From NCBI GenBank assembly GCA_048885865.1, contig JBHLLF010000001.1, positions 128,001-192,000 of the forward strand: a DNA stretch of 64,000 nucleotides. The letters are read 5' to 3'. Positions 56,827 to 59,359 of the stretch are shown here, piece by piece. The stretch comes from Candidatus Hermodarchaeota archaeon (GTDB lineage: Archaea; Asgardarchaeota; Thorarchaeia; Thorarchaeales; Thorarchaeaceae). How positions within the stretch are numbered: position 1 is the first letter of the stretch; every line of letters begins with the position of its first letter. The translations under genes were made by a program, and so were the position numbers. The notes under the pieces were generated by a model that made no database searches, had not been told where the DNA came from, and saw only the letters and a program-made list of their open reading frames with translations.

Positions 56827-56902
56827 GAGCAGAGAGAATGAGAAAGAAGAGATTAGAGGCATAGGCGTTGACTTCGTCTATGCCTCCAAATTATAGCAAG
56901 CT

Positions 56903-57400
56903 CTAATATCTGCGATCACGGTCGCGATCTCGATATCCGCCGCCGCCACGTCTATCTCTGTAGCCGCCACCACCGCGACGGTCTCTGTAATCTCCGCCGC
57001 CGCCACGTCCGCCATATCTTCTTGGTGGACGTTCATGCTCTTCGGCTGAGACGTCGTTTTCCTCGTTGACTTCTTCAATTGGCTCCTCAGCTTCATTGAT
57101 AATACCATATCTTCCAATATTGAGCCGAAGATTCCTTTGAAATAGTCCAGTATATCCGTTTTCAAGCTTGTAGGTCTTGCCAACCTCTAGTGCGTCAATG
57201 GAGTCATCCCACAGAGGCATTACAACTGTGCCACTGGCATCTCCAATGACAATATCTGCAACACGATGGGTTTCGCCATCATGCCTTGAGGTCACCTCGC
57301 GAGCCTCGCCCTTTGATAGGACCTTGAACGAGATTGTTAGGTTCTTCATACGGGGTTTAAGGTCTGAGATGATAGCAAGAACAGGTTCCGGTTCGCTCAT
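56903..57400 (-). CDS. Single OB-fold ssDNA-binding protein (crenarchaeal SSB/hSSB1 type) with RGG/RD tail
   Basis: ISDLKP, VADIVIGDASG, LWD, NGY..F, LNIGRYG; tail of GGGGYRDRR repeats. Confidence 0.88.
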   Translation of the reverse strand: MSEPEPVLAIISDLKPRMKNLTISFKVLSKGEAREVTSRHDGETHRVADIVIGDASGTVVMPLWDDSIDALEVGKTYKLENGYTGLFQRNLRLNIGRYGIINEAEEPIEEVNEENDVSAEEHERPPRRYGGRGGGGDYRDRRGGGGYRDRRGGGGYRDRDRDRRY

Positions 57401-57576: not shown

Positions 57577-58041
57577 CTAGCCTAGCTTCTGAGGAGGATT
57601 CAACCTACTCACGTAGTACATGCCAGCGACAAGGACCAGAGGTCCAAGGAAGATAATTGCGGAGCCAATACTCCAAAGCAAGCTGAACTCAACATTTAGA
57701 TTGACCAGAATATTCCCCGCGATGAACATGATGATCCCGGATAGCATGATGATGAGTCCAGGTCTGGTGTCCCTCCTTTCAATCACAGGCTCAGGAGCAG
57801 ACGCGATGGTTGGTGCATCGGATGTCTTGGCATCAGATCTGTAGAAGCGGCTTCCATCTGATGTCAGTCTTCCAGATAGCTTGCCTTCCTCTACCAGCTC
57901 CATAAGCATCTTCTGAGTTTCTTCAGGTGATAAGCCAATCCGCGAGCTCAACATGTCGATTGAACTGACATTGTTCTCCACAAGGTCAACTAGATTGACT
58001 ACACTCTCCGAACGAATGTTTCTCGTTTCGCTACCTATCAT
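57577..58041 (-). CDS. Winged-helix (PCI/DDRGK-like) protein with two C-terminal TMs
   Basis: LSSRIGLSPEETQKMLMELVEEGKLSGRL..DG.RF; two hydrophobic helices. Confidence 0.65.
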   Translation of the reverse strand: MIGSETRNIRSESVVNLVDLVENNVSSIDMLSSRIGLSPEETQKMLMELVEEGKLSGRLTSDGSRFYRSDAKTSDAPTIASAPEPVIERRDTRPGLIIMLSGIIMFIAGNILVNLNVEFSLLWSIGSAIIFLGPLVLVAGMYYVSRLNPPQKLG

Positions 58042-58195
58042 TGTCTATCACTGTTGAAAACATACCGAGTCAGAATATAACACATAGCCACTATCTAGGC
58101 TCACAATTAAGGTTCACATATTGTGGACTCAAGTAGTGACTTCTCGTTTTCGTTCAACGCAATTCTGCAGGCGCGTCAATTCTTCATTCACAATA

Positions 58196-58225
58196 TTTAT
58201 ATAATGTAATACGTAATACTATTAC
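58196..58225 (+). promoter_or_regulatory. TATA box plus palindromic operator, copy 1
   Basis: TTTATATA followed by perfect GTAATA-C-TATTAC (58213-58225). Confidence 0.7.
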
Positions 58226-58278
58226 ATGAAAGACTGAAATCCGCTGGTATTCGGCGGTACAGTCGCGAGGTGAGATGG

Positions 58279-58422
58279 ATGACTAACAAGAAGAATCGCA
58301 AATGGTGGAATCGGATTGCCAGGCGTATTGCCAAGCGCTACAAGAATGAATCGATCTATCGCGATTACACGGGAAGGTCTAACTGGCCTAGTGTGGCGTT
58401 TTGGTCAAGTCTGTACAAGTGA
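58279..58422 (+). CDS. Small basic peptide A (47 aa, MTNKKNRKWWNRIARRIAKRYKNESIYRDY...)
   Basis: GAGGTGA SD upstream; homologous to peptide B; below ORF-track cutoff. Confidence 0.7.
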   Translation: MTNKKNRKWWNRIARRIAKRYKNESIYRDYTGRSNWPSVAFWSSLYK

Positions 58423-58461
58423 TATGACGTTGAATGACAGTCATAATACAATTCCACAATA

Positions 58462-58491
58462 CTTATATAGAATAACATGTAATACTATTAC
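58462..58491 (+). promoter_or_regulatory. TATA box plus palindromic operator, copy 2
   Basis: CTTATATA followed by identical GTAATA-C-TATTAC (58479-58491). Confidence 0.7.
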
Positions 58492-58547
58492 GTGGAATAC
58501 TGAAAGCGCGCGGGAAACCGGGCGGTGACAGCCACGAGGTGAGATGA

Positions 58548-58652
58548 ATGACAGACAGGATAAATCGCAATCAGTCAAAGAGGATTGGCAGGCGAATTGG
58601 AAGGCGCTTCACGCATGAGTCGATTTACTACGACTACTTTGCGGAGGCATAG
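58548..58652 (+). CDS. Small basic peptide B (34 aa, MTDRINRNQSKRIGRRIGRRFTHESIYYDYFAEA)
   Basis: GAGGTGA SD; shares NR..RI.RRI..R...ESIY.DY with peptide A. Confidence 0.7.
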   Translation: MTDRINRNQSKRIGRRIGRRFTHESIYYDYFAEA

Positions 58653-58712
58653 ATGATGGCCTCTTTCGTGCGGATGATCATGTCTGGACAAGCAAAAAGG
58701 AAGTAGGTCATT

Positions 58713-58811
58713 ATGGCAATAGAAAAGAATGAGAACAGGAAGAAGGCAATTGGAAAGCAGATCCAGAGTACCAGAGCCATCGCATGGGCTTACCAGTATA
58801 AGAGTGGGTAG
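58713..58811 (+). CDS. Small basic peptide C (32 aa, MAIEKNENRKKAIGKQIQSTRAIAWAYQYKSG)
   Basis: AGGAAGTAGGT upstream; followed by hairpin and T-rich tract; loose similarity to A/B. Confidence 0.45.
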   Translation: MAIEKNENRKKAIGKQIQSTRAIAWAYQYKSG

Positions 58812-58818
58812 TTGAGAT

Positions 58819-58843
58819 GGCTCTTTTGGAGCTCTTTCTTCTT
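58819..58843 (+). terminator. Putative terminator of the small-peptide locus
   Basis: GCTC-TTTTG-GAGC hairpin followed by TCTTTCTTCTT. Confidence 0.4.
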
Positions 58844-58921
58844 AGCGCTTCTAGTGAGCCCGTGCTTGTGTTCTTTGGGGCATGAGCACTCTCACACCTT
58901 TACTGTTTTTAGAAACTCGAC

Positions 58922-59359
58922 TCATTTTGTGTATCGTTTCTTGAGATCCTTGAACCACTCAGGGACCAATGCATCATCAACTCTGTCGGACGATGGGAGA
59001 TAGGGTTTGATATCCACAATAGGAGTTTCGTCCTTGGCATCTATCTGGTCTATCTCTATGGCTTTTTGCTCTTCATGCAGACCAAGAAGTTTCACGATGG
59101 AAAGGCAAAGGAGGTTTGGCCTTGCAGGAGAGCGGCTAGCAAAGACACCTGATAGCTCTGCTCCTTCAGCAGGGGGAACATCCTGCAGATGCGTTCTATA
59201 CTCAGGCATGTCAAAGCCAGCCGCCCACCATATCACGTGAATGTGCGAGAACTTGTCTACATTCAATGTACCATCCCAGAACTTAGAGCCAATCTGCAGG
59301 AATATCCTCCCATCGTCGTGCTTCTTCACAAATCCTATTGGCTCAATCTTGAACTCCAT
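58922..59359 (-). CDS. TrmO/TsaA-like SAM-binding protein (tRNA methyltransferase family)
   Basis: EPIGFV, FSHI.V.WW, GVFASRSPARPN, TPIVDIKPY. Confidence 0.88.
   Translation of the reverse strand: MEFKIEPIGFVKKHDDGRIFLQIGSKFWDGTLNVDKFSHIHVIWWAAGFDMPEYRTHLQDVPPAEGAELSGVFASRSPARPNLLCLSIVKLLGLHEEQKAIEIDQIDAKDETPIVDIKPYLPSSDRVDDALVPEWFKDLKKRYTK

Follow-up and report, generated by a model that had tools for sequence, protein, structure and literature searches.

The window analysed here, a stretch of 64,000 nucleotides, carries a group of very small genes in the gap between a divergent gene (57577-58041) and a convergent trmO gene (58922-59359). The gap holds two repeats, a further small ORF (B) and a hairpin, which together are a self-contained archaeal operon with a tandem partial duplication: a promoter, an operator and a leader precede each of two ORFs, A1 and A2, and B and the hairpin follow (Table 1). 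Genes this small are usually missed. None of the three ORFs is in the ORF track, as first noted, yet some gene callers do call A1 orthologues, under the label 'hypothetical protein'.

Table 1. Features of the microprotein operon, with positions in the window
Feature	Positions	Strand	Remarks
TATA box, unit 1	58196..58204	+	From sequence; TATA-like columns near-invariant across 22 homologous promoters
Operator 1: GTAATAC 7-bp repeat and 13-bp palindrome (58213-58225)	58206..58225	.	Directly 3' of TATA; putative repressor position
5' leader stem-loop, unit 1	58232..58264	+	z -2.45; structure retained in relatives
Shine-Dalgarno GAGGTGA, unit 1	58267..58273	+	From sequence
A1, A-type microprotein, 47 aa	58279..58422	+	Long form, WPxVAFW tail
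TATA box, unit 2	58463..58470	+	
Operator 2: degenerate heptad and palindrome (58479-58491)	58472..58491	.	
5' leader stem-loop, unit 2	58491..58536	+	z -4.35
Shine-Dalgarno GAGGTGA, unit 2	58536..58542	+	
A2, A-type microprotein, 34 aa	58548..58652	+	Short form; likewise 34 aa in G015, L200 and L201
Intercistronic hairpin	58653..58714	+	Predicted over B ribosome-binding site; not predicted in G015
B, B-type microprotein, 32 aa	58713..58811	+	Basic linker, STxAIAxAYxY core
Family-wide 3' hairpin (58862-58889) and pyrimidine tract	58862..58912	+	z -3.8; 12-bp stem

The original prediction described two cassettes, each with a TATA box, an identical palindrome, a hairpin leader and a GAGGTGA Shine-Dalgarno sequence, and all of these elements are present. 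The palindrome, GTAATACTATTAC, occurs as identical copies in the two operators, with an extra 7-bp half-site 5' of each. The 266-bp repeat unit proposed with it holds for the promoter blocks (58189-58239 and 58455-58505, 82% identity) but not for the ORF blocks, which are spaced by 269 bp and share 74% identity. A third ORF of 32 aa and a terminator had also been placed after the cassettes; both are there, but the hairpin lies outside the end of the flagged region (58843), and the ORF, B, is probably a homologue of A1 and A2 and not an unrelated basic ORF. The ribosome-binding site of B (58698-58708) is weaker, and the hairpin predicted over it might possibly couple B to the termination of A2. 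The hairpin and pyrimidine tract 3' of B are probably a terminator or the 3' end of the operon.

The product of the divergent neighbour has 154 aa, is winged-helix-like at its N-terminus and hydrophobic in its C-terminal region; the gene is conserved beside the operon. At 56853-57400 lies an SSB-like OB-fold gene whose repeated tail is rich in Gly and Arg, then a 15-bp inverted repeat (56853-56889).

Selection on the peptides and extent of the family

Selection on the peptide was first proposed from six synonymous changes between the A1 and A2 cores. All six are verified and ACT/ACA can be added to them. Values of dN/dS across six homologue sets are those of purifying selection (0.16-0.53) and not near 1, the value named at the outset as refuting. 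As pooled pairwise values, for which the pairs within a set are not independent, dN/dS for A1 against A2, where sites are few, is 0.29; five close A genes give 0.39 (0.24 for their core alone), B orthologues 0.31 and eleven B genes from another genus 0.16; the core of the C13 A paralogue set gives 0.03. Both shifted frames exceed the true frame in every set and are mostly near or above 1, the weakest contrast being that of the A set in frame +2 (0.52 vs. 0.39 in frame). Core residues are encoded by all of their synonymous codons, both Ser boxes included, with the reservation that members were chosen by a permissive core pattern and the invariance of the residues in this test is therefore partly built in. 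Starts, Shine-Dalgarno sequences and stops are also conserved. As judged from sequence comparison, selection acts on the A1, A2 and B ORFs as proteins, and conservation extends to the promoter, operator, leader and 3' hairpin.

The locus is syntenic in G015, G014, G001 and G010 and at L200-L202. Its layouts among relatives comprise one A gene with B, two A genes with B, A-B-A-B, two whole cassettes and a decayed B, which shows repeated duplication and decay. Decayed B copies, with an internal stop or a lost start, stand behind intact A genes at L005:1750-1900 (G010) and L201:2640-2770. Two further ORF readings were rejected. In relatives, a hydrophobic ORF of 22 codons at 58817-58885 loses its start or frame, and most of its changes are non-synonymous (partly by eye). 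Read-through of a TAG codon from B into C fails since TAG is the commonest stop in the host genome (815 of 1894) and the C ORF is out of frame in other lineages; B-C 'fusions' in databases arise because the gene caller reads TAG as Gln. The host genome (G000) has a tRNA-Sec, and TAG is the commonest stop in its long ORFs (43%).

A search for homologues shows the family to be larger than first described, with B as its main member. The B profile matches 81 of 86 genomes of the Thorarchaeota family, in 0-14 copies per genome; from 314 other Asgard genomes it obtains only two borderline hits (E about 0.05) and nothing credible. The A profile matches mainly two genera, and divergent A genes head arrays in three more. 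Seven B-type and three A-type genes are spread over five loci in the host genome, and the fullest array has the order A-B-B-C. Homologues that carry a name are Thorarchaeota hypothetical proteins, one of them labelled Promethearchaeota. Over about 12 residues the A and B peptides fall into a common register (T[LH][ED]S[LI]YYDY vs. ST[EDRK]A[IL][AT][YH]AYxYR); their profiles align with modest significance (hhalign E 4e-4, probability 36%), and cores intermediate between the two types exist. A and B are thus probably homologous through this one core. It is this element, ESIYxDY or STxAIAxAY, that extends across the family, and not the RIxRRI stretch first taken as part of the core, which is Arg-rich and confined to this locus in this genus. 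The core is predicted to be helical: the AlphaFold model of B is a single helix with its highest confidence over the core (pLDDT 89 at residues 21-30).

Searches with the A and B peptides in Pfam, NCBIfam, PHROGs, PDB sequences, Rfam, Foldseek and the ESM Atlas gave no match, and a literature search, in which coverage of subscription journals was thin, found no description of the family. The top match among 1.84 billion proteins, a 1337-aa surface repeat protein, agrees at 10 positions and was set aside as chance. The peptides are a real, undescribed, lineage-specific microprotein system and a member of no family tested. The view of them as an undescribed, tightly regulated family under selection is borne out by the homologues, the dN/dS values and the conserved operator and leader.

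Further arrays in the host genome lie at L204 (C13:39494-39917, minus strand), L205 (C18:27334-27658), L174 (C2:99130-99237) and L206 (C22:47728-47950). Those on C13, C18 and C2 have promoters with the other two motifs of the family, and the one on C22 has neither. The L204 region (C13:40171-42087) places its array divergent from a PH1932-like ArsR regulator (E 0.003), and in many genera this array adjoins two profilin-like genes. G024 (L073-L076, L041) and G075 (L078-L081) each have four to five cassettes, dispersed and in several cases at matching sites; those of one genome resemble each other more closely than they do those of the other, an apparent case of concerted evolution.

A shared operator and a candidate repressor

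Family-wide, the peptide arrays have three promoter classes, and the class of the window is the one with an operator directly 3' of the TATA box. The palindrome pattern occurs 10 times in the host genome, both strands counted, and not once in the reversed genome, and 47 of 86 genomes contain the operator pattern, which has few matches in the controls. In 19 of 30 fetched loci the operator lies directly 5' of a gene for one ribbon-helix-helix (RHH)-like protein of about 110 aa, and it precedes two of three RHH-like paralogues in the host genome. Because the operator also precedes its own gene, the RHH-like protein probably represses the peptide promoters. The RHH assignment itself is weak but convergent: six of 20 members hit Pfam RHH_1 with a best E of 0.0014, below the cut-off, AbmR is matched at E 7e-5 and ParD2 at TMt 0.73 with E 6.6, and the strand is not formed in the monomer model.

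The fold has been described (PMC5569661), and the candidate resembles CopG, Arc, omega and ParD in that it would be autoregulated, at about 110 aa, through 7-bp half-sites in direct and inverted orientation beside the TATA box. In contrast to these, it would govern a dispersed regulon of peptides, an ARPP-1 protein and small secreted proteins, with no adjacent toxin. It seems likely that the RHH-like protein binds the three half-sites between TATA and start site and that this repressor, with the same operator before its own gene, would keep the operon silent pending a release signal. A site directly downstream of TATA is the usual binding place of archaeal repressors.

The operator also stands before genes for an ARPP-1 protein, for a 56-aa protein that is conserved, and for small proteins whose N-termini are signal-like. 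An ARPP-1 domain gene follows the operator at L207 (G000 C81:2931-4380), L145, L146, L153, L163 and L167, and in some of these loci the operator-linked gene is divergent from an RHH-like paralogue. The 56-aa protein, beta-rich and with no match in Pfam or NCBIfam, follows it at L208 (G000 C13:70287-70564), L159, L170 and L172. At L015:1322-2078 (G000 C1:94393-95149), an RHH-like gene (C1:94820-95149) is accompanied by three operator copies about 180 bp apart. The divergent promoters at this site lead into a segment free of ORFs and into a small protein whose N-terminus is signal-like and which ends in CxxC.

Association with MFS transporters and possible functions

The three window peptides have GRAVY values of -1.36, -1.23 and -0.96 (A range -0.9 to -1.8), and the maximum 15-residue hydropathy is at most 0.17 among them and 0.94 family-wide, with no membrane segment. 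Net charge runs from -6 to +11 in A orthologues and from +2 to +11 in all 124 B peptides. With A orthologues able to be acidic, the shared property is the core and not cationicity. We infer that A and B are soluble peptides in which a variable, mostly basic N-terminal tether would be joined to a helical docking core of about 12 residues. One face of this core would carry small residues and the opposite face Thr/Ile/Tyr. The peptides would act by binding, and their many copies would give a high dosage. Several known motifs were considered and rejected: most B peptides end in YRR or FRR, which excludes a proteasome HbYX tail, and the key residues of a PIP box, a class III signal peptide and the PqqA ExxxY motif are not conserved (by eye).

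The only positive clue to function is what paralogous operons share with the genes of one MFS transporter family, namely promoters, operons and copy number. Paralogous arrays are often found immediately 5' of MFS genes (PF07690), frequently within one operon, and the two other array promoter motifs also precede MFS genes in the host genome (C11:56675 and C2:99318) and in several genera; the same two motifs stand 5' of a bactofilin-like gene. Across 86 related genomes, with counts transcribed from search tables, the copy number of B follows that of the MFS family at rho 0.67, a value inflated by contig linkage and drawn from genomes that are not independent (0.57 with genome size taken into account, 0.58 for the means of 16 genera, 0.15 in the largest genus alone), and 10 of the 12 genomes without the MFS, a co-loss that amounts to about three lineages, hold at most one B match. 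As controls, an unrelated MFS gives rho 0.02 with B, and co-loss is not clear for the co-regulated bactofilin-like gene (p 0.10). The link derives from the paralogous operons: no transporter is adjacent to the window operon, and none was seen among the genes under the RHH operator. Some near-complete genomes have B without the MFS (G019, and G031 as a weak profile match only).

Our preferred reading, held tentatively, is that the peptides work with this Thorarchaeota MFS family, as cargo or partner. Export of the peptides by the transporter, as signal or effector, is doubtful taken singly, and so is their action as cytoplasmic modulators of it. Small transporter modulators such as SgrT, MgtS and AcrZ, most of them single-copy membrane helices, are likewise small ORFs co-regulated with transporters; unlike them, the present family is soluble and multi-copy. 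Alternatively, a stress programme common to both could account for the shared regulation, with neither contact nor export. A Thorarchaeota peptide communication or effector system, in which up to 14 dispersed, homogenised helical peptides of about 30 aa under three regulators are exported or sensed by a dedicated MFS, seems rather unlikely; we know of no such system described in Asgard archaea. At L174:520-1009 (G000 C2:99318-99808), about 490 nt with no evident gene, possibly a structured leader, separate the promoter motif from the MFS start. L203 (G000 C6:51511-52840) has the bactofilin-like gene with the upstream motif of the peptide arrays.

New here are the homology of A and B, the RHH regulon as traced through several genera, the MFS test with its controls and the hairpin at the end motif of the C-type ORF. 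The closest prokaryotic relatives of eukaryotes are the Asgard archaea. For this peptide family, found in nearly all Thorarchaeota at high copy, operators can be defined and there are candidates for both the repressor and the transporter, such that the system could be rebuilt from synthetic peptides and purified proteins despite the organisms being uncultured.

A modest possibility is that these are cytoplasmic stress or dormancy peptides, stoichiometric on the ribosome or nucleic acid, and that the transporter is merely co-regulated. RMF, SRA, Lso2 and the small spore proteins are models for such binding. A ribosome or RNA-binding factor was among the roles first suggested, and what favours it is composition. 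The peptides do resemble eL41, RMF, SRA and Lso2, small basic ribosome or nucleic-acid binders, in size, basic residues and predicted helix; the net positive charge of every B peptide and the Tyr-rich core fit, as do three different switches for one family and the many dispersed copies, near-identical within G024 and G075, which suggest a dosage demand. The charge of A orthologues, some of them acidic, fits poorly, no similarity to ribosomal or hibernation families was found in Pfam, NCBIfam or PDB (nor did the eL41 profile, PF05162, match the window ORFs), and the specific co-loss with one MFS family would be left unexplained.

A toxin or antimicrobial, either type I-like or a leaderless multi-peptide bacteriocin acting on membranes, is improbable. 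Both a membrane toxin and a cationic amphipathic antimicrobial had been proposed, and both fit poorly with peptides that have a negative GRAVY, lack a hydrophobic 15-mer and, in some A orthologues, are acidic. Hok/sok is a type I toxin system in which a short ORF lies in a highly structured mRNA. Short ORFs in structured mRNAs are found here too, and in another genus (g5) a pairing of 9-12 bp in which compensatory changes occur joins the 3' UTR to the first AUG (L026, L027, L038, L040 and related loci), in the manner of the hok lock. However, no such fold-back is predicted in the window, no transmembrane helix or antisense RNA was seen in the sequence, and control here would be by a protein operator. 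Leaderless multi-peptide bacteriocins (PMC6131525) share with the locus tandem, paralogous, cationic peptides in one operon with no leader (30-34 aa in the likeness drawn, 30-47 aa over the candidates here) and, at paralogous loci only, a transporter association. An amphipathic N-terminal helix is also present in A1 and A2 (moment 0.95-1.07), but most A orthologues are without it. Aureocin A70 and garvicin KS peptides have GRAVY values of +0.40 to +0.71 (PMC6131525), as opposed to the hydrophilic peptides of this dispersed, multi-copy, chromosomal archaeal family, which has no sequence similarity to them; no immunity gene, ABC exporter or antisense gene was seen, the window neighbours being trmO and the wHTH-membrane gene.

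A modified-peptide (RiPP) precursor, with a Tyr-rich C-terminal core, a remote enzyme and MFS export, is quite improbable. Conserved Tyr spacing, dispersed multi-copy genes and the associated MFS would suit it, and a Trm112-like methyltransferase converges on one paralogous array locus in many genera. This role had also been proposed, but no enzymes are linked to the operon: about 90 loci inspected have no co-transcribed or conserved modifying enzyme, no conserved cleavage site was seen, and the C-terminal RR is accounted for by overlap with the next Shine-Dalgarno sequence.

RNA structure in the leaders and at the operon end

Both leader hairpins are more stable than shuffled sequences (z -2.5 for unit 1 and -4.4 for unit 2). 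The stem is kept in relatives with some compensatory changes, amounting in unit 2 to one compensatory pair in eight sequences, and the unit 2 leader of L201 retains the closing stem with a shortened interior. A kink-turn in the leader was considered and is not conserved. In the window, the 3' UTR segment corresponding to that of the g5 fold-back is predicted to pair with the B coding region instead. It is very improbable that the unit is a structured non-coding RNA with incidental ORFs: the transcript folds extensively, its 3' UTR pairs with the B coding region in three genomes, and the end motif of the C-type ORF is largely hairpin, but the in-frame dN/dS values lie below those of shifted frames (only slightly for A set frame +2), the core is kept across synonymous codons with its starts, Shine-Dalgarno sequences and stops, and Rfam has no match.

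The hairpin 3' of B has homologues in 15 operons with this class of promoter and at 37 other operon ends. In the latter, as in L204 near C13:39494, it overlaps the EVLxxEAT-stop end of a C-type ORF; the window retains the hairpin without the C ORF. The Val and Leu codons of the motif are nearly invariant, and Trp/Leu changes compensate each other within the stem. Because of this overlap and these changes, an end that could be read as a conserved peptide motif is at least partly an RNA constraint. The upstream Thr and Glu codons of the motif vary synonymously, so that peptide and RNA constraints may both apply.
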